Shown here: piece after piece, positions 19,563-57,200 of the stretch
Layout of the letters: each line of letters begins with the position of its first letter
How positions within the stretch are numbered: the first letter of the stretch is position 1
Assembly: GCA_030295235.1 (NCBI GenBank)
Contig: AP026128.1
Coordinates: forward strand, 62,001 to 126,000
DNA: 64,000 bases
From: Fistulifera solaris
Lineage: Eukaryota
Direction: 5' to 3'
Notes under the pieces: model-generated
Told to the model about the DNA's origin: nothing
Seen by the model: only the letters and a program-made list of their open reading frames with translations
The model's database searches: none
Translations under genes and position numbers: made by a program

Positions 19563-19663
19563 CTTGATGAAGGTATAACAGAAATATTTTACACAAATAA
19601 TAAGGCCGCAACAATAAATGCGAGCGCCTTCGTCATCATTGCGTCGACAAAAGATCCGCGCAC

Positions 19664-20173
19664 TGTTGAAATTTCTACCGCGGTCTGTAACTGCTCTCGG
19701 CTATCGGGGACTCCACACACCCCAGACAAAAGACTATTGAAACAACGAACTTTTGCTCCAAACACTCGTTTACAGAATTATGACGATTTCCTACGATTAC
19801 TTTCGCTTTCCTCTTTTCACTGGTCTCCGATCTGATCTTGATCTGATCATGATCCGATCTTGCCAAGTCCATTTCTCCAATAACAACTTTAGGATAAAAT
19901 AGCCCTTTCTGCCAATCCACCAGATTCTCCATTATTGCATGTTCCTTAGCAACTAGCAACAGTCATCGTCCATAATTGCATACTGGATTCTTCCGTGATC
20001 CCAAATCCCCAAACATATAGTTCGAAACACTTCCGAGACTCCTTTCACGAGTAGAATGCTTTCCCAATAAACTAGGCGGTCATTTCGAACCATTCCGACA
20101 TCCGATGACGTGTCAACTCATGACTGAATAAATCTTTCAGTCCGACACTCAACCTCGACCTCGCTCTTTGACA
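19664..20173 (-). repeat. 3' LTR of element A (510 bp, TGTCAAAG...TTTCAACA on the minus strand)
   Basis: Direct repeat of 24531-25038; TG...CA termini; preceded on the minus strand by the PPT GACAGGGAGGA (20174-20184). Confidence 0.95.
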
Positions 20174-23100
20174 TCCTCCCTGTCGGCTGCTAAGATTAAC
20201 TGCGTCATGAGTCCTTCTCTAACAACAGGCACCAAAAGATCATGGATTTTCTCTGTCACATTCTTGGTTTCCAGATCTGCAATATTCCTTTCCGATCGAA
20301 TAAACTTCACAACCAGCCTGGCTTCTTCCTTCTCCGTTGCAGCCATCATCTCCCTTATAAAATGCATTCGAATATCAATGTGTTTCGTCCTATTCCCCAC
20401 AACTTGGTTTTCCATCAAGAAGATTGCGCCCGTGTTATCTTCAAACAAGGTAGCCGGTCGAATCTTCACCTTCGGAAACAATTCTTCGAATAACATCTGC
20501 AAAAACTTGATGTCCGTCGCACACGTAGATGCCGCATAATATTCCGCCTCCGTACTTGACAGTGTCACCGCCGGTTGCAACTTGCTTGAAAAGCCACACA
20601 AACAACCTCCAATGGTAACAAAGTAGCCAGTAACACTTTTCCGCGTCTCCTTGTTCGTAGCAAAGTTTGAATCCACCCATGCGTAAACCTTCAAATTAAC
20701 AGGCTCGCGCAACTTCAAATGAACGTCCGTACTCTCGAGATAGCCGACCAATCTCTTCATCGCTCTCCAATGTTCTTCACCTGGCGAATCCATAAACATT
20801 GCAAGCTCCCTAACTGCATTTCCACATTCCGGAGCTACTTTCCGCACCAGCCACATGAGACGTCCGAGAAACTTCCGATACTGATCCTTATTAACTGGAT
20901 CGCCTTCGTTCTTCACAAGCGATTCCCCTGGATAGCCCGGTGTCTTCTCAGCTTTCAACGGTCCAATCAGCTCCTTCCAATCCTTTACTATCTCGTCTTT
21001 GTACTCATCCATTCGCACTTCGTAGAACTCTCCTGCTTCATCCGATTTTCTCTCGTACCAAACTCCCAAGTGTTTCTGAATCGGGCCCATCTCGGTAATG
21101 TTGAAGCGCTTCTTGATCTCTCTCTTGAACCAATTGATTTCTTCTTGGGGACCGGCAAGGATACAATCATCGACATACACCACAATGATTAATACTGTCT
21201 CGCCGTTCACCACTTTAAACCAGACACACGGATCCGCAGCACTCTGAATAAGCCCCAGCTTCCTCAATTGGGCACAGTAGAGCATGAAGTACTCTCGTGG
21301 ACTCTGGACCAAACCGTACATCGCCCTCTCCAATAGGATGATGTAGTCAATTAACTCTTCATGCGTGATGTACCCAAACTCATATAGCCCAAAGGGCCAT
21401 TCAAGATACACCTCCTCTCTCAACTTCGCTTCTAGAAACGCAGCCTCAACGTCAATAACTTCAGTGACCCACATCTTCTTCCACATGTAAAGTACCACTG
21501 CCAAAACCATTCGAACCGACATGTCCGATGCAACAGGTGAATGCGAAAGAGTGAAGTCCACACCAGGGATTTGAACAAACCCCCGCGCACAAGTCCGAGC
21601 TTTGAAACGAATTCCCGTTGCCTCTTTCTTCTTTTTGAAAATCCACTTCGGCGTAACAGGCTTCCGTCCTCTCTCCTTCATCTGCTTTCTAGGAACCATC
21701 TTCCAAGCATCTCTTTTAATGAAATTTTCAATCTCCTTCTTCATTGCCTCTTTCCACTTGTCTGCATCCGGACCAACCAAGGCTTCCTTGTAAGTTTTCG
21801 GCGCACCAGGATCCGACGCCAACTCCGTATTCAAAACGTAGTGAAAATAACCTTCCGACACATCGATTGTATTGATCTCTCCTTTGGCGTTCATTGTTGG
21901 ATTATATGAAGTGTCCAGCCTTGCCATTTCTCTATTCAGTCTTTTCATCGTCGATTGCGTCTCTTTCCGTTGATTCGGTGCTGGAGTATTGTCCGCCGTA
22001 GCCTCGGGTACCAGAGCTTCCGTAGGACCTTCCACAGCCACTTCGACAACTTCCTCTGCCGCTTTCTCTTCCACAACTTTCCTCCCTGCTCCAGCATCGA
22101 CATCTTCGAGCATCACCGGTTTGATTGCGACTTCCTCCCCAATTTGGTCATCCTTTAAGTCGACTTCCATTCCAGCTGCAAACATCCTTAACTCTGATGC
22201 AACTGAAGCACTCGATCCATGCCAGTCTGCCCAAGTGACGTCACGTGAGAGAATGACAATATTTTCATCCGGCTTGTAAACACGATACGTATCGCCCGCA
22301 TGCGAATCCGCGTACCCAACCATCACGCATTTCACTGACTTCTTCTCCAACTTGGGCTGTTTGTTTCGTAAAGTCACATATCCGATCCGCCCCCACTGAA
22401 CCAAGTGTTTCAGTATCTTAGGATGCTCGCCGTACCACGCATAATCAGGGCTCGATTCCACATTCCGATTCGGGACAGCGTTATCCAACTTCGTTGCCGT
22501 GTGAACAGCCTCGGGCCATAACTTTCCTTGATGCTCATCCGACAACTTCGCCGCCAACATCATCGCAAGGGCCTTATCGCGAATTGTCGTGAACTTCCTC
22601 TCAACAACACCGTTCATCTGCGGAGTATGCGGGGCAGTAAACTCCATAGTTATGCCCCTCGCCTCACAGATCTCCTTGAATGTTCCGTTCTCGCCTGCAT
22701 TATCACACCGAATGTACTTTACGATTACGTTCGGATCTCCTTTCAAGCGATCAAGAAATAGCGTCATGACTTTGCCAATCATCGACTTCTTTGTAACGAA
22801 GTAACTCCAAGCTTTGCGCGTGTAATCATCCACCAATAAGATCCAGTAGCAACTCTGTCCCAACGATTTCTTGTAGGGCCCACTCGTGTCCACGTAGAAT
22901 CGTTCTCCTTTCGCCGTTGCTTTGATAGCCGTCGACTTGCACACCGCCTTTGCTTTCGCCTTCGCATACGCGCACGCCTCGCATGTCTCCTTGGTTCCAG
23001 TTAACTCGATTCCCAACTGTTTCATGAGACTCTTCAAAGGAATGTCGCTGGCGTGTCCGTACATATCGTGCGCAGCATTTATGTCCATCTTCACTTTGGT

Positions 23101-24481
23101 CTCCACCGCATGGACATCTGACTTAACAACGCTAGCCTTCAAGTAGTATAACCCATAGTGTGACTGAGGTACCGTCAACACACTCTTTCCGGAGGGGTCA
23201 GTGATCTTCATCGCACAACTGGTTATCTCAATCTTGCACCCTTGCTTCACTAAAGCCCCAGTACTGATGATATTCTTTGCGAACGTTGGCGCCACCTTGA
23301 CTTCACTCAACTTCATAGTACCACCCACAGTAGCGAGCATGAGTGTACCCTTCTTGTGTACTTGGACTTCCTTTCCGTCGCCGACGACCAAATACTCCTT
23401 CGTCGAAATAACATCGCGCAAAATCGTTTCATCCAAAACAACATGGCACGTCGCTCCACTGTCGAGAAGAAACCTTTCCTTGTCGTTGACTCTCGACGTT
23501 TCGACCGCACCAACTTGATGAACGACGCCACAGAACTCTTCGCCGCCTTTGCCGACCTCATAGCACATGCCAACGAACATGTTCAGGTCCTTGTTCTCCG
23601 ACTTCGGATCCTTGCCGTTCGACTTGTCCGGACACTCGCGAGAGAAATGGCCTTCCTTGCCACAGTTGAAGCAGACTTTCTTCTTGTCGCTCTTGCACTC
23701 CGCTGCCTTGTGTTCCTTGTTTGCCGCAGTTGCGGCACTTTCCTTGAACTTCTTCTTAAAACCACCCTTGCCCTTTTCGACGTTTAATGCTAAATTTTTA
23801 TTTTCTTTTTTGTCTTTTTTCTTTTTCTTCGTTTTCTTCATCGTTCTTGGGCTTGAAACAGCGCTTCCACTTGTTCCGGATCTCCTTCTCGAGGTCTTCA
23901 ATCGAGGTCTCGTTGATCTTTCCGCTCAACTTCGTGATCACATCCGAATACTCGTCAGGAAGGTTGGCCAAGTAGTGGGCTTTCAAAACGAAACTTGGCT
24001 TCACATACTGCGATCCGATTGTCTTCAAACGGTTCTGTAACCGATCGCACTCCAGGAAGAACTTGTCAGGGTCATCTTCCTTCGACGCCAACTTGCACCG
24101 TCCGAACTCCGCCAACACCTCCGCCAAATCTTCCTCGCTGTTCCGGGCGTACTTAGCATCCAAAAGCTTGAATGCGTCTCTCGCATCACCATCCGCTCTC
24201 TTGACAAGACCCAAAGGAACGCCTTCGCACGCAATCACCAACAAATCGATGATCTCGAGATTGCTTCGATACAACTCCTTGTCCTTCGCCGTCGCCGTCG
24301 CTCCCATCGCAACTTCCTTCGTGGGGATCTCGGCCTTCAGGTCATCGAACACACTTGTCCAACCTCTCTTCGTGATCAGCGACATCGTCTTGAACTTCCA
24401 GTCATCGTACGACTTCTCAGCGACCTTGTCGTCCAACGGGTAGAAGGTCAAAGCCCTCATCTTCTCTCCCTCGTCGGTCAT
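20149..24481 (-). CDS. Copia Gag-Pol polyprotein, interrupted by one extra A in the A6 run at 23815-23820
   Basis: Gag (ORF 23798-24481); zinc knuckle CFNCGKEGHFSREC; protease LLDSGAT; integrase HHCC and VDTSGP/RCDNAGE/NGVVER; RT YVDD; RNase H VDSNFA/TEAEY/EDN. The stop codon lies inside the 3' LTR. Confidence 0.95.
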
Positions 24482-24513
24482 CTTGTCTTGTCTCGTAAAC
24501 TTTTTTTTCTCAA

Positions 24514-24530
24514 CGCCACGCTTATAAGCG
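24514..24530 (-). other. Primer-binding-site position of element A: 12-nt palindrome CGCTTATAAGCG followed by TGGCG
   Basis: Immediately follows the 5' LTR ...TTCAACA. CA-CGCTTATAAGCG-TG is a perfect 16-bp palindrome. Confidence 0.8.
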
Positions 24531-25038
24531 TGTTGAAATTTCTACCGCGGTCTGTAACTGCTCTCGGCTATCGGGGACTCCACACACCCCAGACAAAAGA
24601 CTATTGAAACAACGAACTTTTGCTCCAAACACTCGTTTACAGAATTATGACGATTTCCTACGATTACTTTCGCTTTCCTCTTTTCACTGGTCTCCGATCT
24701 GATCTTGATCTGATCATGATCCGATCTTGCCAAGTCCATTTCTCCAATAACAACTTTAGGATAAAATAGCCCTTTCTGCCAATCCACCAGATTCTCCATT
24801 ATTGCATGTTCCTTAGCAACTAGCAACAGTCATCGTCCATAATTGCATACTGGATTCTTCCGTGATCCCAAATCCCCAAACATATAGTTCGAAACACTTC
24901 CGAGACTCCTTTCACGAGTAGAATGCTTTCCCAATAAACTAGGCGGTCATTTCGAACCATTCCGACATCCGATGACGTGTCAACTCATGACTGAATAAAT
25001 CTTTCAGTCCGACACTCAACCTCGACCTCGCTCTTTGA
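24531..25038 (-). repeat. 5' LTR of element A (508 bp; lacks the terminal TG)
   Basis: Matches 19664-20171. The identity ends at ...CTCTTTGA (25038), two bases short of the LTR terminus. Confidence 0.95.
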
Positions 25039-25184
25039 ATACGGAGTTGGCGTCGGATCCTGGTGCGCCGAAAACTTACAAGGAAGCCTTGGTTGGTCCG
25101 GATGCAGACAAGTGGAAAGAGGCAATGAAGAAGGAGATTGAAAATTTCATTAAAAGAGATGCTTGGAAGATGGTTCCTAGAAAG
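25034..25184 (+). repeat. 151-bp inverted duplicate of the pol segment 21685-21835
   Basis: Reverse complement of 21685-21835, identical by eye (encodes NTELASDPGAPKTYKEAL...WKMVPRK). TTTGA microhomology with the LTR end at 25034-25038. Confidence 0.95.
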
Positions 25185-25444
25185 GGTTCGAACCCTGGCG
25201 GAGTGAGTTTGTTGCCGACTCCTGTGAAGCCGGGAGGATAAAAGAACAGGGCTTGAAGCGGTCTCAAGCGAGGAGGCTGAAGGGCAAAACAGTACGATCA
25301 TGATAGTATAAGGCCAGGGAGGATGTCAGATTGAGGGTCTGGACGTCAATCAGAGTGGCTTATATATCATGGATCGGGGTAGAAATACGACGTGATTGGG
25401 TTGGCTCTGTGGTTCGATTCCACAGTACGTTAGTATTTTCATCA
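25184..25444 (+). mobile_element. Non-autonomous mini LTR element (TRIM-like, element B) lacking its 5' LTR: palindromic PBS, about 115-bp structured spacer, PPT and 121-bp LTR (25324-25444)
   Basis: GGGTTCGAACCC-TGGCG at 25184-25200; CAGGGAGGA|TGTCA at 25315-25328, identical to the PPT/LTR junction of element A; ends TTTCATCA (element A: TTTCAACA); followed by the target-site duplication. Confidence 0.75.
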
Positions 25445-25450
25445 GCGCAC
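25445..25450. repeat. Target-site duplication GCGCAC (partner copy at 19658-19663)
   Basis: GCGCAC|TGTTGAAA on the left and TTTCATCA|GCGCAC on the right. The reconstructed empty site is a (CGCGCAC)3 tract. Confidence 0.75.
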
Positions 25451-25744
25451 CGCGCACCGCGCACCGCAAAAAAAATCCTGCTATGTGCTATGTGAGGGCG
25501 AAACATCAACTGTCGTACCAGTACTCAAAATTATTCGCCTTTCGCCTTTATCGTCTTCGCGCCGTCTCCCTCCGTCGCCACTTTACAACCCATTCCCGTT
25601 CGTGACTGACGACACCTTTATTGCTTGTTGATCCTCTATTGTATACTACGGAGTAGCATTTTTCTTCGTCTTCTATCTCCTAGTTGTTACTGTATTACTT
25701 TGTCGGGGACAGAGAATTGGCTTAAAGAGAAGGAAGTTCCCAGG

Positions 25745-29019: not shown

Positions 29020-31677
29020 TTAGTCGTCTAGCAAGTCATCAAGATCGTCGTCGCCCCAATCATCATTAAAGTCATTAGCGTCTGCCGTCAACTGCGTTGC
29101 ACTCGGTTGCGTCTTCGCTGTCGTCAGTGGACGAGCGGTAGGCTTTCCAAACGAAGGCTTGGCGGCGAGATCAAATTCGGCGAAGAAATCGTCAGCTTTC
29201 GGTTTTGTGGCAATGGGCAGTTTAGTAGCGGTAGGCTTCGGAGCGCCAAGCTTTGTTATCACTGGTGCTGACATCGGAGACGGCGCAAGTGCTCCCTGGG
29301 GTTGATCCAAGTGATTATTGCGATGGTGCAGAGCGGTGTTGTGCGCCGCCCCGCCTTGCCAGGACGGCCCTCCATGACTTGCACCATGTAAATTCAGGCC
29401 GGGTCGAGAAGCCACCGGCTGAGGGGATGAAATGTCCTGTTTGTCTTTTGAACTACTTCTTCTTATTAGTTGTTTTTTCTGTGACGGAGGAGTCTTCGAT
29501 CTAGGCTTTCCAAAGCTTGTCCCGGCCACACGATGGGTATTCTCGGGTTCTTGTGCAAGCTCAACATCGCCTTCACCTTCGTCCCAATCCCAGTCATCGG
29601 CATCGCTTTCTGCCTCATTAGTTGACCTGAAAGTAGTAACGCAATAAAATATCTGAGTACTTGGATTATGAGGACACAGCATGCTTATGTCACCCACTTT
29701 TAACTTACACCCCTTCGTATACAGCAGATTTGTGAAAACGTCTATTCGAAAGATCCCCGATGTGTGAAACCCCCACCCTGGCTTTTCTCTGGTAGTAGCA
29801 ATACGCAGCCATGATGAAGAACAAGACAAAGGAAACGGTCGGCATGAAACCGAAACCGTCATTCTCATCGGTTTCAACGCACATATCATCAGGCCTTTCT
29901 TCTTCGTTTACCTCAAAGCACTTTCCCGTATGCCAAATACATGCTTTGCCAGCTTCGTTCGGATTTCCTAACTTGCAGCTATCACAGGTTGTAAAAGACT
30001 CACAAAGATCTGGTTTGGCGCACATTGCCTTGGGCTTCTCGTCCGCTTCTTTTTTCAAACAAGTAGAGCCATTCCACACACAGGCTTTGTCGTCCTCTCC
30101 GGCGTCCATATCATTACACTCATCGCAATCTTCAGCATCCTTACAAGGATCAGGATTGTCACACATGGCCTGGGGCTTCTCAGACGCGTCTTTTCTCAGA
30201 CAACTGAAGCCATCCCATACACAAGCTTTGCCGGCCTCGTCTGCACTCGTGTCATCGCACTCATCGCAATCATCAGCATCTTTGCAAGGGTCGGGCTTGT
30301 CACACATAGCTTTAGGCTTTTCATCAGCGTCTTTTTTCGAACAACTAGAGCCATCCCACACACACGCTTTGTCAGGCTCCTCCACACTCATGTCATCGCA
30401 TTCAGCGCAATCATCTGCTTCCTTGCAAGGATCAGGCTTGTCGCACATGGCTTTCGGTTTCTCATCCGCGTCTTTTTTCGAACAAGTAGAACCGTCCCAA
30501 ACACAACCTTTGTCAGGCTCGTCGACATGCGTATCATTACACTCGTCACAATCATCAGCGTCCTTGCAAGGATCAGGCATGTCACACATAGCACTGGGTT
30601 TCTCATCCGCGTCTTTCATTTCACATTTGCTTCCATCCCACACACAAGCTTTGTCATCCTGGTCCGCACTCGTATCATTGCACTCATCACAATCATCAGC
30701 TTTGAAGCAGGGATCCGGTTTTTCACACATTGCTTTGGGTTTCTCATCAGCGTCTTTTTTCGAACAACTAGCAACGTCCCAAACACAAGCTTTATCAGGC
30801 TCATCGACATTCGTGTCATTGCACTCGTCACAGTCAGTAGCATCCTGACAAGGATCCGGTTTGTCACACATTGCTTTTGGTTTCTCGGCGGCGTCGCTCT
30901 TCTTGCATTCCGCACCGGACCACACACACGCTTTGCCATCTTCCAGGGCATCCGTGTCATTACAGGCGTCACAATCATCCGCCTTAGTACAAGGATCCTT
31001 TTGTTACACATATCATCCGGCTTTTTGGAAGCTCTTCCCTTTGTACACGCACTGCCATCCCATAAGCACGCCTTTCCCTCTTCTACTTGGGCATCATTGC
31101 ACGTATCGCAGTCTTTTGCTTTCGGACACGGATCCTCTTTGACATTACACATTTCGATTGTCATTTTACTGTCTCCTTGAACACACGTATTATTTTTCCA
31201 TTGACAAAACGGATGATCCCCATCGGACGTTGCGTCCACGCATTCTCCACAAGTCGTGGCATCCGCGCACTGGACCGCTTTGCCCTCCTCGGTGGGGACG
31301 GCCACCGGCTTATCTTTTGGACCTGCCTCGACAGTCGGTTCGATATCCTTGACCGGAGCCGCCACCGGAGCTGCGGTCGACACGGGTGTATCGCATACTG
31401 GTTCTATGTCAGACTTCTCCGCCATCGCGCAAGCCCCGTCGGACCACCGACATGCTTTTCCTTGTATTTGCGGGTCCGTGGCTTGACATTCCTCACACGA
31501 GACCAAAGTGTGACAAGGATCGTCTTGCTGCTGATTGCCCGTGACATTCGCCTCGGGTTCTTTCAAATGCCGTATTTCAGATTTTTTGGTGAAAGATCCG
31601 TCGGATGACACCAGCACAACGAGAATGGAAATAAGAATCAGCGATAACGGACGTCGCCGTGTGATTCGATGTGTCAT
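29020..31677 (-). CDS. Type-I membrane protein with about 11 Cys-rich PSI-like repeats (47-aa unit); frameshift near 31000, intron about 29627-29708
   Basis: Hydrophobic N-terminus; tandem DPC...C..C...KACVWDG..C...MC units with a 141-bp period; TM segment VSFVLFFIMAAYCYY; acidic/Pro-rich cytosolic tail ending DDWGDDDLDDLLDD. Confidence 0.85.
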
Positions 31678-41011: not shown

Positions 41012-41778
41012 TTCGAGTTTGCAAATATAGCTGCTGCTTGATTCAAGGTCGACCGATGACGGGCAAAAGGAATGCGAATTGTTACAGTTGGTATATGATT
41101 GACAACAAAGATGCCGTTCGACTGTTGTCGTTGTCGCTGTGTTTGTGCGCTTGTTCGCGGCGGCGGCGGCGCTCGCTCGCGCGCTGTTTGGCCGCAACGA
41201 CAACAACCATTATTGCGGAACGCGAGGCATGCATCATGCATCATAACCTGAGTCGCCTCTAGCATTAAGTGTAGGAGAACGGCACTGACGTCAGAATACA
41301 TGCATGATCGACAAAAAGATTTCAATCCTGACTGTGGCGTCAGCATATCGCTTCCGCAAAAAAGGAGCGATGAACGATGAAACGATGAAACGATGAAACA
41401 TCTATTTCCCTTATTATGGCAACCACTGGTGGTGCTTAACCCCCAAAGAATGCGAATATAGAAGGATAAACGCGTGAATCGCTTTCCCTGTGCACGAATA
41501 TGAAAAACGGCGGCGGTAATAACAGCGCCCAGCAGCAGCGAACTGATCAATTAACCTTGTTACGGTGTTGTTGTGGGCCCACAAAAGATGAAAACAAATA
41601 TGACTCGTTCGAGCTACAATCTACTTTGATTTGTTTATCTTTTCTGTCTTCCTTCTCTGCATAACTGAAACCAAGAATCGATATCATCGGCTATCACCAT
41701 CACTTCTTGCCTCGACACCATGCATCCTCGATTCGACCGCATTATCAATTCAAAGGAGAGCCTTACCAAGCCGGTACC

Positions 41779-42373
41779 TTAAACCGTGCCTTTTCCCTTG
41801 CCCTTTCCTTTGCCTTTGCCTTTTCCTCCTTTGCCCTTTCCTTTACCGGAGTCGGTTCCTCCTTTTCCTTTGCCAGAGTCCTCGCCTCCTTTGCCCTTTC
41901 CTTTGCCAGAGTCGGTTCCTCCCTTGCCCTTTCCTTTTCCGGAATCGGTTCCTCCTTTGCCCTTGCCTTTACCAGAGTCTTCGCCTCCCTTGCCTTTTCC
42001 TTTACCAGAGTCTTCGCCTCCTTTGCCTTTTCCTTTACCAGAATCGCTGCCTCCTTTGCCCTTTCCTTTGCCAGAGTCGGTTCCTCCCTTGCCTTTTCCT
42101 TTACCAGAGTCACTGCCTCCCTTGCCTTTTCCTTTGCCAGAGTCTCCTTTGCCCTTTCCTTTACCAGAATCACTGCCTCCTTTGCCCTTGCCTTTGCCAT
42201 GGTCAAGGCGACGCAAGTTCTTAAAGAAGAATTAGCGAACCGATTGGAGAACGAGCCTTACGAAAATGCATCCGACCCCTTTTGGCACTCACCATTTGTT
42301 CGCCGTCGTTTTCTGCTGCGATGGCCAATGCGGCCATGACGCCGACAATCAAAAAGTTGAAAAGACCTTTCAT
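41779..42373 (-). CDS. Secreted Gly/Lys-rich repeat protein (173 aa): signal peptide, RRL, (GKGKGKGG[S/T/E]DS)x11; exons 42373-42293 and 42219-41779
   Basis: Exon 1 MKGLFNFLIVGVMAALAIAAENDGEQM, GTGAGT...TAAG intron, exon 2 NLRRLDHGKGKGK...; 33-bp tandem repeat. Confidence 0.85.
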
Positions 42374-43047: not shown

Positions 43048-45905
43048 TTATACGTAGATGACGTACATTTGAATATTGCGCCAATCGACATAAAGGGACA
43101 TGGAAAGGACGTTAAAATTCTGCCACTCAGTACAAATTTCTACGTAGAGCCTACGGCGAGACAGAATTTTAACGTCGTTTCCTGATGTTGCTTTAAAATG
43201 GTCCAATTCCCACGAGTCGATATCTTCAATAGGTAGGTCATCACTTGTCACGGCGTTGGTTTCGACACGATAGTGCAAGGGTGCTTTCTCGGACAGTGGT
43301 ACAACACTCGCATCGTCCTCGTCCGACAAGCCGTCGCTGTCCTCCGTACAAACCGCTGCTTCAACATGGACCACGCATCCGGGTGAAATTTCTTCTTGAA
43401 TCAGCATGCGACTCAACGTTGTGACAACCGTCGATTCGATGTAGCGTTCAACGGGACGAGCTCCGTACTTCGGATCGTACGACTCGGCCAATATCATCCG
43501 AGCTCCATCCGGTTCCAAGACAAGAATTATACCCTTGGAAAGAAGACGCTTGTGGACATTTTGTATGGCTTTGTGTACAATTTTTTCGAGCTGATTTGTT
43601 CCAAGGGCATTGAAAATCACCATGCATGAAAGACGATTTAAAAGCTCCGGTGTAAAGGTTTTCTGTGCTTCCAGCATAACTTGAGCACGAGCTTCCTTCT
43701 TCTTTGCATGACTTTTAAGCATATGCTGCGAACCGACGTTCGATGTCAGATTAACAATTGTATTGCGGAAATCAACCTTGCGACCTTTGGAGTCTGTCAG
43801 GTGCCCTTCGTCCATGATTTGAAGCAAGACGGTCAACACACGAGGATGAGCCTTTCCAATCTCGTCGAATAAAACGACGGTGTACGGTTTGCGACGAACG
43901 GATTCGGTCAGTTGTCCGCCCTCGTCGTGTCCGATATACCCAGGGGGTGAACCTATTAAGCGGGCCACCGAATGCGACTCAGAATACTCGCTCATGTCGA
44001 TGCGAACCAAGTGCCGTTCATAGCCGTCATACAATTCGCTAAACAGAGCCTTGGAAAGTTCCGTTTTGCCAGCACCTGTAGGCCCGAGGAACATAAAAGA
44101 ACCGGAAGGTTGTGACTCGCGAGCCAAGCCAGCTTTAGACCGAAGGATGCATTCGGTGACCGCATAAATGGCCTCGTCTTGTCCCACGACCCGTTCACGT
44201 AGCCGTTCGCTCAAATTCAAGAGCCTTGACTTTTCTGTCCGAGACATTTTGGCACAGGTATACCAGTCCAACGTGAAATGACTTCTGTGATATCTTGCTC
44301 CGTAACATCTTTATCATAATTGCAGCTTTCCGCTTTTCGCGCCTTATTTTCTGTTTCGATCTTGTTCAACTGTTTCTGCGTGGCGGGAATGGCTCCATAC
44401 TTTAAATCAGCCGCTTCATTGTAATCTCCGTGTCTTTCGGCTGATGCTGCCTTGAATTCCAACGCCGCAAGCTTTTCCTTGACAGTCTTTAATTCTTCTG
44501 CTCGTCGGCGATCAGCCTTCCATTTCTCGTTCAGAGGTTCCAATTCTTTCATCAACTTTACCATTTGATCTTCTATATGGGAAAGCTTTCTCGCGGGTGG
44601 AGTTTTCTTCTGACGCTCTAGTGCCGTCGCTTCGATTTTCAACTGTAGAATTTGCCGTTCCAGTTGGTCAATTCGTTCTGGTCGACTATCAAGAATTGTC
44701 CTTTTCCTTGCACCGGCTTCATCGATCAAATCAATACTCTTGTCTGGATTAAAGCGATAGTTGATGTAGCGATCCGACAGTTTGGCAGCTGCTATAACGG
44801 CACTGTCGGTGATATGAATAGCATGATGCGTCTCGTACTTATCCACTAAACCACGAAGCATAGAAACGGCGTCCCGAACTGACGGTTCGTCTACTATTAC
44901 CTTTTGGAAGCGTCTCTCAAATGCAGAATCTTTCTCGATGTAATTTCGGTACTCCTGCAGTGTCGTGGCACCAATCATTTTCAATTCACCCTTTGCCAAC
45001 ATGGGCTTGAGCAGATTGGCCGCGTCCATGGAACCGCTGCACCTACCCGCACCGAGTATGAGATGAACTTCATCCACAAATAGAACAATGCGGCCTTCTG
45101 CTTCTTTGACCTCTTCCAATACGAGTCGTAGACGTTCTTCAAAGTCCCCCCGATAAGTGGTACCTGCCACGAGCGCTCCCATATCCAGAGTACGCAAGGC
45201 AATATTCTTGATGGTTTCGGGCACATCACCGTCGACAAGACGGCGAGCAAATCCGTCTACCACCGATGTTTTGCCTGTACCTGGTTCGCCCACCAAGACA
45301 GGGTTGCTCTTCGTGCGTCGTGCAAGAATTTGAATCAATCGTCGAATTTCTTCGTCGCGTCCAATTACGGGATCCAACTTCCCCTCTTCGGCTAGTTTTC
45401 GCATGTCAATACCATACTTTTCGAGCGCTGCAAGCTTGTCTTTAACTACTGGAAAGACGGTTGTGGATGCCTTGCAAATCTGGATCAGCGTTTCTTTCAC
45501 CGTTTTCTCCTTGAGGACTCCCTTCAACGCTACTTTAGCTTCACGATCTTCAAATAATGCAATTAGCAGGAGGTTCGGTGCCAGGAGTACATCATCATTG
45601 GCCTTGCATAGTTTCGCGGCATACTCCAGCCACAAAGAAAAATTGCTTGACAAAGAAGCTTCGCCAGGGATTTCTGGATAAGCGGGCTTCTTCAATAAAG
45701 CTTTCTGAATACTTTGTCGCGCCAAATAAACATCACACGATGCTCGAAGACAAACTTTGGCTCCAATGGAGTCTTCTCTCTGAAACAGTACGTGTGCTAG
45801 ATGAATCGGATCGACCTTTGAATGGCCATGATCACAAGCGGTCACACGTGCTTCGTCGATCGCTTTCTGCGACGCGTCAGAGATGTTATTGTTGTTCTCT
45901 GCCAT
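43048..45905 (-). CDS. clpB: Divergent ClpB/Hsp101 AAA+ disaggregase paralog; frameshift near 44250
   Basis: [63 protein letters not shown]. Confidence 0.88.
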
Positions 45906-46014
45906 GTTGTTGCAAAGTATTTTCGATTGCTTGCATTATTTCACCTTGCTTGAAAAATGAAAAGATGCGGGTTCTCTTTTGAAATTGATGAGCGAATCAA
46001 AATTGAGGAATAAA

Positions 46015-48532: not shown

Positions 48533-49990
48533 TTATCGAAAAATTTTCAGTATTCTCCACGCATCGATATCTTTGGCAATTGTATCACAACTTGTCACCG
48601 CATCAAATTCAACACGATACTGCAAGGGTGACTTCTCGGCCAATTGTAAACGACTCGTGTCGTCATCGCTTGAGGACTGCTCCGTGGCTTCCACATGGAC
48701 TACGCACCCGGAAGTGATTTCTTCTTGAAGCAGCATACGGCTCAATGTCGTGACGACGGTACTGGTAGCCTCGATGTATCGCTCCACCGGACGAGCTCCG
48801 TATTTCGGATCAAAAGACTTGGCCAGGATCACGCGAGCTCCACTGGTTTCCAACACAAGACGAATGCCCTTGGACAGGAGAAGTTGGCGAACATCCTGAA
48901 TGGACTTGTGAACAATCTTTTCCAGTTCATTAGGCCCAAGAGAATTGAAGATAACCACGGATGAAAGGCGATTCAAAAACTCTGGGGCGAAAATTCTCTG
49001 AACCTCATTCATAAGTTGAAAATTCGTCTCTTTTCCATCGCCTTCGGTCATATGCTGTGCTCCAATGTTCGATGTCAGAATAACTATGTATTTCGAAAAT
49101 CAACGGTAAAGGCCCTTTAGAGTCCGTCAAACGCCCTTCATCCATGATTTGAAGTAACACTCTCAGCACATGAGGATGTGCCTTTTCAATCTCATCGAAG
49201 AGAACAACCGCGTATGGCTGGCGGAGTACGGCGTCGATCAGTTGTTCACCCTCATCATACCCAATATATCCCGGCGGTGACCTGATCAAGCGGGCTACTG
49301 AATGCTGTACAATATACTCACTCATGTCGACGCGAACCAGGTGCCGTTCATCGCCATTATAATGAGTTCACCTAACAATGCTTTCGCCAACTCCGTTTTA
49401 CCAACCCCTGTAGGGCCGAGAAACAAGAATTTTCTTGTCGGCTGCGAGTCGCGTGCCAAGCCAGCTCTTGATCGAAGAATACATTCGGTGGCCGCATTAA
49501 TGGCCTCGTCTTGACCCACAACCCGCTCCCCTCAAACGCTGGTTCGTCAACAATCCCGCTTTTTCGCTTTGTGTTAGTTTGGTAACAGGGATGCCGGTCC
49601 GACGGGAAATGACTTCTGCAACATCCTGATCCATTACATATCCTTTGGTCGACACCGTTTTCGATCTTTACCAGCAATTCGAACGTTGTCAAACTTTGCT
49701 TTGCTGATATAATGCATTCATCTTCCATGATTGAATCGGCCTTCAACTTTTCTTTTGAGGCTTCTAGCTCGGTTCTCGAACTGATTAAATTCGCTAGCTT
49801 TGCTATATATGGCGATTTCTTCTGACGCTGGATTGCTACCTCTTCGGTATCTGACTTTTAGATTGTCGTTCCAGTTGAGCCATCTGAGCTGGTCGGCTGT
49901 CCAGAATGGATCTTTATGCGTCGCAGCTTCATCAATCAGATCGATACTCTTCTCGAAATTAAATTTGTGATCGATGTAGCGGTCCGATTC
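48533..49990 (-). pseudogene. ClpB/Hsp101 pseudogene (N-domain and most of NBD1 missing; multiple frameshifts)
   Basis: Fragments [64 protein letters not shown] and [12 protein letters not shown] lie in different frames. Confidence 0.88.
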
Positions 49991-54474: not shown

Positions 54475-57200
54475 ATGACAGATCCAAATCGAGCAGTTAC
54501 CGACGCATCGGTAAAAGCTATCAACGAAGCAATCGCTGCAGCCCGCGACAATGGCAACAGTGTCGCCGATCCTATTCATCTCGCACACGTTCTCTTTCAC
54601 ACCGAAGACTCCATTGGTGCCAGAGTGTGTCTTCGTGTATCCTGCGATGTCAATTTGGTGCGGCGCAGCATTCAAAAAGCTCTTTTGAAGAAGCCCGCAC
54701 AAACGCCGGCTCCACTGGAGGCATCTCCCTCGTCGTCCTTTTCCCTTTTGTTGCAACATGCCACCAAGCTTTCCAAGGCCAACGGAGATGCCTTGGTGGC
54801 GTTGGATCACCTGCTAATGGCGTTGTATGAAGATCGTGAAGCCAAGAGTGCATTGGAAGAGGGCGGCCTTTCCAAACAAAAAGGCAGAAACCGGTGTCAA
54901 GGAAATTCGTGGCGACTCCAAAGTGACTTCGTCGGGCGCGGAAGATCAATACGAAGCACTCGAAAAGTACGGAATTGATTTGCGGAAACTGGCCGAAGAA
55001 GGCAAGCTCGATCCCGTGATTGGCCGTGACGAAGAGATTCGTCGATTGATTCAAATCCTGTCTCGACGAACCAAAAACAATCCTGTTTTGGTGGGCGAAC
55101 CAGGTACTGGTAAAACATCAATTGTCGAAGGTTTGGCACGACGATTGGTGGAAGGCGATGTCCCCGAATCCATCAAAGGAGTTGCTTTGCGTACACTGGA
55201 TATGGGAGCACTCGTTGCCGGTGCCAAGTATCGCGGAGAATTTGAAGAGCGACTTCGGGCCGTATTGGACGAAGTCAAGCGCGCCGAAGGCCGAATGGTT
55301 CTCTTTGTGGATGAAATTCATCTAGTCTTGGGTGCGGGCAAGACGGACGGAGCCATGGATGCGGCAAACTTGCTGAAACCGATGTTGGCTCGTGGTGAAC
55401 TGCGAATGATTGGTGCCACGACTCTGAACGAGTATCGACAACACATTGAAAAGGATTCGGCCTTCGAGAGGCGTTTTCAACCCGTCACTGTCAACGAACC
55501 ATCCGTTACCGATACTATCTCGATGCTGCGTGGTCTAGTGGAACGATACGAAGCACACCACGGTGTTCGTATCACGGATAGTGCCATTGTGGCGGCAGCC
55601 AAACTGTCGGATCGATATATCAATCATCGTTTTAATCCGGACAAGAGTATCGACTTGATTGATGAAGCAGCAGCACGAAAGCGGACCATCCTTGATAGTC
55701 GACCGGAAAGAATTGATCAATTGGAGCGTCAAATCCTACAACTGGAGATTGAAGCGACGGCTTTGGGCCGCGAGAAAGACAAGCAGTCGAAAAGAAGTTG
55801 TCCCAGATTCGCGAGGACATTATCAATTTAAAAGAGGAACTGGCACCTTTAAATGAAAAGTGGCAGGCGGATCGTGGACGAGCCGAAGAACTTAAGGAAG
55901 CCAAGGAGCGGCTTGCGACACTGGAATTTAAAGCTGCCACAGCAGAACGGCAGGGGAGATTATGAGAAAGCGGCCGATCTCAAGTACGGTGCCATTCCAG
56001 ACTTGAAAGCGCATTTGAAGAAGATTGAAGAAGAGGAAAAAGCCCGAAAGGCCGAAAGTGGCGATGAAAGCGAGAACGTCACGGACCAAGATATTGCCGA
56101 AGTTATATCTCGCTGGACCGGTATTCCAGTCAACAAACTGTCGCAAACTGAAAAGTCGAGGTTGTTGAACTTGGACCAGCGTCTGCGAGAACGTGTGATA
56201 GGACAGGATGAAGCTATCCATGTTGTGACCGATTGCATATTGCGATCGAAAGCTGGATTGGCACGCGAGTCACAGCCAACGGGAAGCTTCTTGTTTCTAG
56301 GTCCCACAGGCGTTGGCAAGACGGAATTGTCGAAAGCTTTATTCAGTGAGTTGTACGATGGAGATGAGCGGCACCTGGTTCGTATTGACATGAGCGAGTA
56401 TTCGGAGCAGCACTCCGTTGCTCGTTTGATCGGATCGCCCCCAGGATACGTTGGACACGACGAGGGCGGACAACTTACGGAAGCCGCTCGTCGCAAACCG
56501 CATTAACCGTTGTTCTATTTGACGAGATTGAAAAGGCGCACCCTCGTGTGTTGACGATATTGCTGCAAATCATGGATGAAGGTCGCTTTGACGGACTCTA
56601 AAGGTCGTACCGTCGACTTCCGCAACACGGTTGTAATTTTGACATCGAACGTCGGGCGCCAAATACTTACTGAATCTTACGGAGGACTCGGACGAAACGA
56701 AAGGAAGCGCATGCACGGGTCATGACCGAAGTACAGAATACATTCGCACCCGAACTCTTGAACCGACTCTCTGGTTTGGTCATGTTCAATTCATTGGGTA
56801 CTACGCAGTTGGAGAAGATTGTCCACAAATCCATGCTAACGTCCGTAGCGTCTTCTTGCCAAGGGCATTCGCGATACTTGAACCCAGTGGAGCTCAGTTG
56901 ATTTTACACGAATCTTACGATCCCAACTACGGGGCTCGTCCCGTGGAACGTTACCTGGAATCGACGGTCGTCACGACATTGAGCCGCATGTTGATCCAAG
57001 GTGACATTACGAGTGGATGTGTGGTTCACATTGAAGCTACCGAAGCAGGAGACGATGACTCGTTTGACGATGCCAGCCATCCCTTGTCCAAGAAGGCGCG
57101 TTTGCATTACCGCGTGGAAGCCAATTCGGGAAATAGTGACATGGATGTTGATGATGACATTGATTTCAACCCGAACAATTGGGAGGGCGATGAGTTTTAG
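54475..57200 (+). CDS. clpB: ClpB/Hsp101 (most canonical copy); several single-base frameshifts
   Basis: [30 protein letters not shown] pore loop, AADLKYG M-domain, [29 protein letters not shown]. Confidence 0.92.

Follow-up and report, generated by a model that had tools for sequence, protein, structure and literature searches.

A 64,000-nucleotide (nt) stretch of the Fistulifera solaris contig AP026128.1, called the window here, contains a full-length Ty1/copia element on the minus strand (element A), which is joined through a duplicated piece of its own pol gene to a truncated long terminal repeat (LTR) element on the plus strand (element B). In element A, a perfect palindrome begins at the first base past the 5' LTR and takes the place of a transfer RNA (tRNA) primer-binding site. 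An earlier note on this DNA had proposed that A and B are two cases of one structure-based priming system, in which palindromes of different sequence, each followed by TGGCG, stand in for the tRNA site. This idea is partly supported by the analysis described below, and a close precedent is already in print for the GalEa elements of fungi (PMC5445492).

The palindrome of element A

The Pfam domain order of element A (gag, protease, integrase, reverse transcriptase/RNase H) is that of a Ty1/copia element. Within the 1258-residue pol frame, matches were obtained to zf-CCHC (residues 84-99), Pol_BBD (152-230), gag_pre-integrs (258-322), rve (345-435) and RVT_2 (752-983, at 1.3e-37). The element is young. 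Its LTRs (19664-20171 and 24531-25038) match at 100% over 508 nt, and the identity ends precisely at ...AACA. The unit from LTR to LTR lacks a target-site duplication (CGCAC versus ATACG). The best named homologues of the pol protein come from Fistulifera solaris (66%) and Nitzschia inconspicua (31%), together with a further protein at 95%, and on such sequence matches the hosts of this lineage appear to be diatoms. The 95% identical protein P0001, a single open reading frame of 1437 residues, matches A in one frame over residues 1-253 and in another over residues 222-1437. Between gag and pol (window 23700-23800), the copy of A described here therefore changes frame, though its LTRs are identical; a mutation, an error in sequencing or programmed frameshifting could account for this.

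Read in the direction of the element, the 5' LTR ends in ...GAAATTTCAACA and is followed by CGCTTATAAGCG, TGGCG and TTGAGAAAAAAAAG. On the minus strand, the LTR end ...TTTCAACA falls at 24531, CGCTTATAAGCG occupies 24530-24519 and TGGCG occupies 24518-24514. The letters are therefore where the earlier note had placed them, both here (24530-24514) and in element B (25184-25200), where GGGTTCGAACCC at 25184-25195 precedes TGGCG at 25196-25200 on the plus strand. Its statement that the palindrome of A lies directly past the 5' LTR is confirmed as well, because the LTR edge is fixed by the two identical copies. Once the CA that ends the LTR and the TG that follows the core are included, the palindrome of A measures 16 nt.

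Within a few bases of the 5' LTR of A there is no site that starts with TGG, and the first TGG sits 12 nt past the LTR. Nor does the LTR of A contain a complement of the palindrome of the kind used by Tf1, the best match being only 8 nt long with G-U pairs included. In two variants of the A subfamily the palindrome is kept and the sequence 3' of it differs. These variants were seen as loose contig ends at 24517 in X1 and at 24512 in X6, two public contig data sets that we compared with the region. In the variant that departs at 24517, the palindrome is lengthened to 22 nt by a match to the last five bases of U5.

The window holds 21 perfect palindromes of at least 12 nt, compared to 15.9 +/- 4.1 in shuffled sequence. 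Since a palindrome of 12 nt is not rare in this DNA, comparative evidence is decisive for A, and it is the sequences of its family, not the window alone, that lead us to reject chance as the origin of the palindrome.

Symmetric change in the relatives of A

To obtain this comparative evidence, the pol protein of A was aligned with 33 homologues, and 79 related loci (L001-L079, 27-53% identity) were taken from metagenome contigs. A further 32 loci (L080-L111) came from genome contigs, mostly eukaryotic contigs binned as bacterial metagenome-assembled genomes (MAGs). A perfect palindrome follows at once on ...ACA in 38 of the 79 metagenome loci and in two of the 32 genome-contig loci (L086 and L094), and in the metagenome loci it lies 25-290 nt from the gag ATG. 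The LTR edge is set by two LTR copies in A and in L003, and in both the palindrome begins at the next base. No repeat of the palindrome occurs up to 500 nt upstream in 39 elements, save for scattered 7-8-mers. A scan with the pol of A found no relatives in viral contigs, and ARAGORN found no tRNA genes in the window or in L001-L079.

Among the 41 metagenome loci without the motif, the 5' end of gag and usable upstream DNA are kept only in L019, L035 and L053. L066 keeps 56 nt and L065 15 nt of upstream DNA, and the remaining loci are truncated or gave no match in searches with the N-terminal part of gag. L035 and L053 have broken reading frames, and in each the motif is present with one broken pair (A.C in L035, U.G in L053). 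When all 111 loci were scanned with one mismatch allowed, only these two decayed copies were added as plausible members. L019 has a TGG-type sequence, TGGAGAATCCGC, after ...AACTCA, its presumed LTR edge.

Two distant copia elements have a different kind of site. L092 (25% identity, with a true LTR pair) has AGGGTTATGAGC directly after ...ACA, which we take to be a site of the half-tRNA type. L093 (27% identity) has G TGGTATCAGAGC at the same place, one base off a GalEa site quoted in PMC5445492. Recovery of these two sites indicates that the search does find tRNA-type sites where they are present. They lie at 3471-3485 in L092 and 7318-7335 in L093; both contigs are filed as bacterial MAGs and are probably mis-binned eukaryotic DNA.

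The pentamer TGGCG, which the earlier note had treated as part of the motif, is absent directly 3' of the palindrome from all 38 metagenome relatives as well as from L086 and L094 (0/40), and it is not kept in the two A subfamily variants. These data bear on the possibility that the true primer site lies 3' of the palindrome (in A, TGGCGTTGAG, a short site for a tRNA 3' end), and that the palindrome is copied into the end of the complementary DNA (cDNA) and then trimmed by integrase. Such an arrangement would account for the palindrome missing from the 3' LTR, and it could draw on the TGG found in A as well as on those within 1-3 nt of the palindrome in L023, L045, L057 and L078. However, the presence of TGG is inconsistent among the relatives, and in most of the 40, as in one A subfamily variant, it does not stand directly 3' of the palindrome. 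In addition, a tRNA predicted to end in ...TTTTTCTCAACGCCA would have an all-U T-stem, which is presumably not tRNA-like, and trimming of 12-16 nt would be unusual. We consider a primer site in this position improbable.

The 41 elements, A included, have 17 types of palindrome, and all differences between them are symmetric and Watson-Crick. The most common type is CGTTTTAAAACG (11 elements), followed by CGTTTATAAACG (8 elements), by CGCTTTAAAGCG, CGCTAATTAGCG and CGTTTCGAAACG (3 elements each) and by CGTTTGATCAAACG (2 elements). The other types occur in one element each: CGCTTGCAAGCG, CGTTTGCAAACG, CGTTTTTAAAAACG, CGCTATTAATAGCG, CGCTATAGCG, CGCTAGCG, TACTTTAAAGTA, TAATTTTAAAATTA, TAATAATTATTA, CGATTATAATCG and, in A itself, CGCTTATAAGCG. 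Three pairs of loci among the 41 are near-duplicates (L003/L025, L005/L006 and L063/L064). Symmetry is broken only in the two decayed copies. The earlier note had named loss of the palindrome with retention of the primary sequence in related families as an outcome that would speak against it, and the opposite is seen: the sequence changes and the palindrome stays. In some families a second perfect palindrome adjoins or overlaps the first, as with CGCTAATTAGCG and CGCTAGCTAGCG, or CGTTTATAAACG and then CTAGATCTAG; such double sites lie at 4199-4220 in L026, 1679-1700 in L029, 5037-5058 in L049, 1823-1850 in L039 and 244-270 in L047.

Pairs were counted on 30 rows, made up of A, 28 loci with 12-nt cores and the decayed L035. 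Seven loci with cores of 8, 10 or 14 nt, the three duplicates, L053, L086 and L094 were left out of this count. The six core pairs are 99.4% paired, and five of the six show changes on both sides, with neither one-sided changes nor G-U pairs. Covariation scores 0.357, compared to 0.103 +/- 0.017 in shuffled alignments, none of 500 of which reach it, and sliding the partner column lowers the score to 0.03-0.12. All 17 types have a self-complementary centre of four bases, for which seven different tetramers occur. Past the core, the last LTR base and its partner form an A-T pair in 15 of 28 distinct rows. In a quick maximum-likelihood tree of the integrase-reverse transcriptase region, sister rows with different palindrome types are found in both major clades, for example A versus L009, L040 versus L041, L015 versus L042, and L020 versus L026 versus L018. 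Taken together, these sequence comparisons strongly support, at the scale of the lineage, a structure at the primer position whose symmetry is kept while its sequence changes.

Strict Watson-Crick symmetry without G-U pairs might also be expected if the palindrome acts on the DNA level, for instance by binding a dimeric protein or by forming a cruciform in the provirus or cDNA, and the outer CG...CG is indeed kept in 37 of the 41 elements. A core that varies from 8 to 14 nt within palindromes of 10-22 nt is a poor fit to the fixed spacing of half-sites, however, and the centre is free to change. A role of this kind therefore has little probability in our judgement.

Element B and the composite insertion

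The earlier note had read element B as starting at its palindrome. Instead, the window copy of B is truncated at its 5' end and has one LTR only; what precedes the palindrome is not an LTR but an inverted copy of part of the pol gene of A. The edges of the B LTR are fixed by loose ends in other contigs, before 25324 and behind 25439/25444. Summed contig depth over this LTR is 981 in X1 and 1431 in X6, versus about 10-20 in the unique flank.

In intact copies of B in the public contigs, the LTR is separated from the palindrome by a tRNA-type primer site, TGGTAACGTGCA. The end of the B LTR (25439 or 25441) is connected to 25183 via AACATGGTAACGTGC or ACATGGTAACGTGC in contigs of X1 and X6, and one 212-nt X6 contig (record 19) spans the LTR end, the site, the internal part and the LTR start. 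The order in intact copies is ...TTTT(CA)ACA, then TGGTAACGTGC, then A GGGTTCGAACCC TGGCGG. Because the TGG-type site comes directly past the LTR and the palindrome only after it, B is not a second case of a palindrome replacing the primer site, and the claim of kept symmetry with changed sequence, which stands for A and its lineage, falls for B. Miniature LTR elements (TRIMs) are described as shorter than 1 kb, with terminal repeats of 100-250 bp, a primer site, a polypurine tract and no coding capacity (PMC6934838). Element B, with an LTR of 121 bp, an internal region of about 150 nt, TGGTAACGTGC after the LTR and CAGGGAGGA before it, is a high-copy TRIM with a TGG-type site directly past its LTR. 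That site opens with TGGTA, as does TGGTAGCAGAGC, the site for initiator tRNA given for GalEa elements of animals (PMC5445492).

An Rfam search of 24300-25700 (E up to 10) gave only a weak match to the tmRNA model, at 25408-25451 in the B LTR. The T-arm plus acceptor strand at 25407-25432 in this LTR is, under the tRNA rules that we assume, well formed. The last bases of this stretch nearly match the complement of the TGG-type site of B itself. The palindrome of B with its flanks (CAGGG TTCGAA CCCTG) presumably resembles a tRNA T-arm with one loop base missing.

The T-arm-like palindrome of B, the TTATAA centre of A, which is readable as an anticodon loop, and the site of the distant L092, presumably of the half-tRNA type, are what could be cited for the idea that the palindromes are complementary to fragments of host tRNAs (anticodon or T arms), as in copias primed by half-tRNAs. 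A tRNA arm is odd in length (5+7+5) and so cannot be a perfect palindrome of even length, however, and 17 such palindromes would need 17 host RNAs that are each palindromic. The changes among the relatives of A are, moreover, always symmetric. We regard complementarity to tRNA fragments as very improbable indeed.

Element A and element B together form a composite unit at 19664-25444 of the plus strand, which consists of A in antisense orientation ending in its 5' LTR minus two bases, 146 nt of the A pol gene in sense orientation, and B from just past its TGG-type site to the end of its LTR (Table 1). Both outer ends of this unit are U5 ends (...CAACA and ...CATCA), and only the composite has the hexamer GCGCAC on both sides, the hexamer being part of a simple repeat. 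The segment 19658-25450 looks like an integrated chimeric cDNA that arose by two template switches. Minus-strand synthesis on B RNA would have halted at the edge of the primer-bound site, then switched with a 2-nt overlap to A RNA for 146 nt, and then switched with a 5-nt overlap onto the minus-strand DNA of A, and the product would then have been integrated through both of its U5 ends. B is broken precisely at the 3' border of TGGTAACGTGC, in keeping with this 11-mer having been held in an RNA-RNA duplex with a primer. Among the contigs listed, none crosses 25038/25039 or 25184/25185; contigs break at repeats, so this is neutral on the junctions. Record 8 of X1 begins only 30 nt inside the B LTR.

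A host amine-oxidase gene lies downstream of B. Elsewhere in the window there are tandem repeats at 29862-31007 (141 bp, 7 copies, inside overlapping open frames) and at 41762-42223 (33 bp, 10 copies), and paralogues of a ClpB/Hsp104-type AAA ATPase at 43048-45935, 48533-49857 and 54818-55831. Repeat pairs at 43-49 kb were considered as LTRs and rejected, as they are ClpB-type ATPase paralogues whose DNA is 74-77% identical at a distance of 5.3 kb.

Table 1. Features of the composite insertion and its flanks, in window coordinates
Feature	Position	Strand	Remarks
GCGCAC, left flank of composite	19658..19663	.	in (GCGCACC)n repeat; weak evidence of duplication
A 3' LTR	19664..20173	-	begins TGTCAAAGAG..., ends ...TTTCAACA; TG at 20173-20172 directly after polypurine tract
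A pol frame	20149..23925	-	zinc knuckle, protease-like barrel, integrase, reverse transcriptase, in copia order
A polypurine tract CAGGGAGGA	20174..20182	-	14-mer (tract + TGTCA) found again at 25315-25328
A gag frame	23798..24481	-	ATG (24481) 50 nt past LTR
TGGCG 3' of palindrome	24514..24518	-	not kept in relatives (0/40) or in two A subfamily variants
16-nt perfect palindrome CACGCTTATAAGCGTG	24517..24532	-	12-nt core 24519-24530; outer CA belongs to the LTR (its final two bases)
A 5' LTR	24531..25038	-	lacks its first two bases (TG); next part joined via 5-nt overlap TTTGA
Inverted duplicate of A pol	25039..25184	+	equals 21830-21685; blastn 25034-25184 vs 21835-21685, 100% over 151 nt
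B internal region, 5'-truncated	25183..25323	+	begins with 14-nt palindrome AGGGTTCGAACCCT, then GGCG
B polypurine tract CAGGGAGGA	25315..25323	+	identical to that of A; 14-mer 25315-25328 equals 20182-20169
B LTR	25324..25444	+	121 bp, TGTCAG...TTTTCATCA; tRNA-like T-arm and acceptor strand 25407-25432
GCGCAC, right flank of composite	25445..25450	.	same hexamer directly after B LTR

A proposed self-complementary primer site and known priming systems

Under the established account of how LTR elements are reverse-transcribed, minus-strand DNA starts at the point that marks the end of the 3' LTR once the element is integrated. Because the first DNA base defines the LTR edge, the 3' end of the primer must pair with the first bases past the 5' LTR, and in A and L003 this is where the palindrome begins, so the primer 3' end would pair with the start of the palindrome. 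A primer complementary to a palindrome ends in that palindrome itself. The element's own transcript therefore always provides a match, whatever the sequence of the palindrome, whereas seventeen host RNAs with palindromic ends as primers are implausible. We hypothesize that in A and its copia lineage the palindrome replaces the tRNA primer-binding site and acts as a self-complementary site for tRNA-independent self-priming, a reading to which we give a probability of about 0.5.

In this model, the palindromes of two genomic RNAs would most likely pair with each other, a fold-back of a single RNA being less likely. A cut in one strand where the palindrome ends on its 3' side, made probably by the RNase H of the element as in Tf1, would leave a new 3'-OH to prime minus-strand synthesis into U5. 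Plus-strand synthesis would later copy the primer back, so that every cycle would restore the left arm to match the right. Rewriting of this kind would hold the site strictly Watson-Crick symmetric while its sequence drifts, and the lack of G-U pairs in intact copies is as expected if one arm is re-copied from the other each cycle. The same logic applies where a tRNA rewrites a retroviral primer site and where the Tf1 primer rewrites its own site. We favour a duplex over a hairpin because the self-complementarity of the central four bases in all 17 types would not be required of a hairpin loop. The predicted energies point the same way, with medians of -0.1 kcal/mol for the core folded alone and -12.4 kcal/mol for two copies paired, although the folding program would prefer the duplex for any palindrome, which makes this a weak point.

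Several considerations weigh against self-priming. The search for rows demanded perfect Watson-Crick palindromes, so the pairing of 99.4% is partly a matter of construction, and the safeguard against this bias rests on few loci. The LTR edge is backed by two LTR copies in only two elements, the other contigs being collapsed or circularly permuted. The RNA cut, RNA-linked strong-stop cDNA and dimer formation are each a matter of inference. Finally, element B shares the polypurine tract and LTR ends of A yet has a tRNA-type site, which is awkward if the particles of A use no tRNA at all.

The palindrome could instead be a signal for dimerisation or packaging only, like the dimer initiation site of retroviruses, with something else as primer. 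Perfect self-complementarity through the centre and the strong predicted homoduplex would suit such a signal, as would the second palindromes in L026, L029, L039, L047 and L049. A dimerisation signal has no need to start at the first base past the LTR, the place of the primer 3' end, as the palindromes of A and L003 do, and it leaves the primer without a candidate site, since there is none between the LTR and the palindrome and no consistent TGG-type site 3' of it. Selection for RNA pairing alone should, moreover, allow G-U pairs, which are not seen in intact copies. We think that a role in dimerisation alone is unlikely, though it deserves to be kept in view.

Few steps in LTR retroelements and retroviruses are as conserved as the priming of reverse transcription, and the only well-studied exception is, to our knowledge, self-priming of the Tf1 type. 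The many independent symmetric changes described here reveal a self-complementary site at the primer position in a broad copia lineage, and they offer a testable model in three parts: dimer-mediated self-priming, arm rewriting and family-specific pairing. A fuller scenario, which we put forward tentatively, is that a large and old copia lineage, apparently of diatoms, has dropped host tRNA primers, and that its RNAs pair via the U5-abutting palindrome, are cut, cross-prime and are copied back, so that the site renews itself as it drifts. If true, each family would gain a private pairing code, and LTR retroelements would have a third mode of priming in addition to the use of tRNAs and the 5'-end self-priming of Tf1. 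For annotation, LTR finders that require a tRNA-complementary site would mis-score or reject such elements in diatom genomes.

The general architecture of A is that of tRNA-primed copias. L093, L092 and the TRIM B have TGG-type or tRNA-internal-type sites past ...ACA, whereas in A and its 40 relatives the palindrome occupies that place. With the retroviral dimer initiation site, a 6-nt palindrome in a hairpin loop that lies downstream of the tRNA site and is additional to it (PMC5445492), the lineage of A shares self-complementary RNA in the 5' leader that is able to pair two genomes. It differs in that its palindrome abuts U5 and that no tRNA site is present. Elements of the Tf1 type, in the Ty3/gypsy group, use no tRNA primer and take their own RNA as primer after an RNase H cut (PMC5445492, PMC6934838). 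The likeness to A lies in the lack of a tRNA primer, the proposed use of the element's own RNA and the rewriting of the primer site from the primer. However, Tf1 belongs to a different superfamily and pairs the first bases (about 11) of its transcript with a non-palindromic site, a complement that the lineage of A is without.

The closest counterpart is in fungal GalEa copias, whose 'Conserved Hairpin Site' was described in 2017 (BMC Genomics 18:410, PMC5445492). A tRNA site is lacking in these elements, and the 9 bp directly past the 5' LTR form a palindrome when the last LTR base is included. Its authors proposed that the palindrome replaces the primer site and stated that no known model fits. 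A paper on TRIMs of bivalves cites the fungal site and, in the portion available, adds no mechanism (PMC6934838). The literature we searched, which excluded supplements and subscription journals, did not describe the primer site of copia elements in diatoms; the main text of Maumus 2009, the founding CoDi paper (PMC2806351), contains neither tRNA, palindrom nor PPT, and its single 'PBS' is a wash buffer. The GalEa, Ty and diatom CoDi clades have been placed in the same copia branch, 'branch 1' (PMC5445492). Our own comparison with GalEa concerns features of the primer site.

These shared features are the lack of a tRNA site, a short palindrome past the 5' LTR in which the last LTR base takes part, and LTRs of the form TGT...CA. 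The fungal sequences CTAATTAGT and CTGATCAGT also resemble the centres of CGCTAATTAGCG and CGTTTGATCAAACG in the lineage of A. A second complementary 9-mer, found 12-41 bp downstream with a fixed A/A mismatch, is a feature of GalEa only (PMC5445492). The lineage of A has in general no such downstream sequence, with partial repeats at that distance only in L010 and L011 (7-8 nt at +19), L020 (7 nt at +38) and L040 (8 nt at +40). The fungal palindrome, at 10 nt, is nearly invariant, whereas that of the lineage of A ranges from 10 to 22 nt in 17 types, with free symmetric drift. The many independent symmetric changes in the lineage of A connect it with an observation in fungi that had no explanation, and if self-priming through a self-complementary site is correct, the GalEa site would be explained as well.

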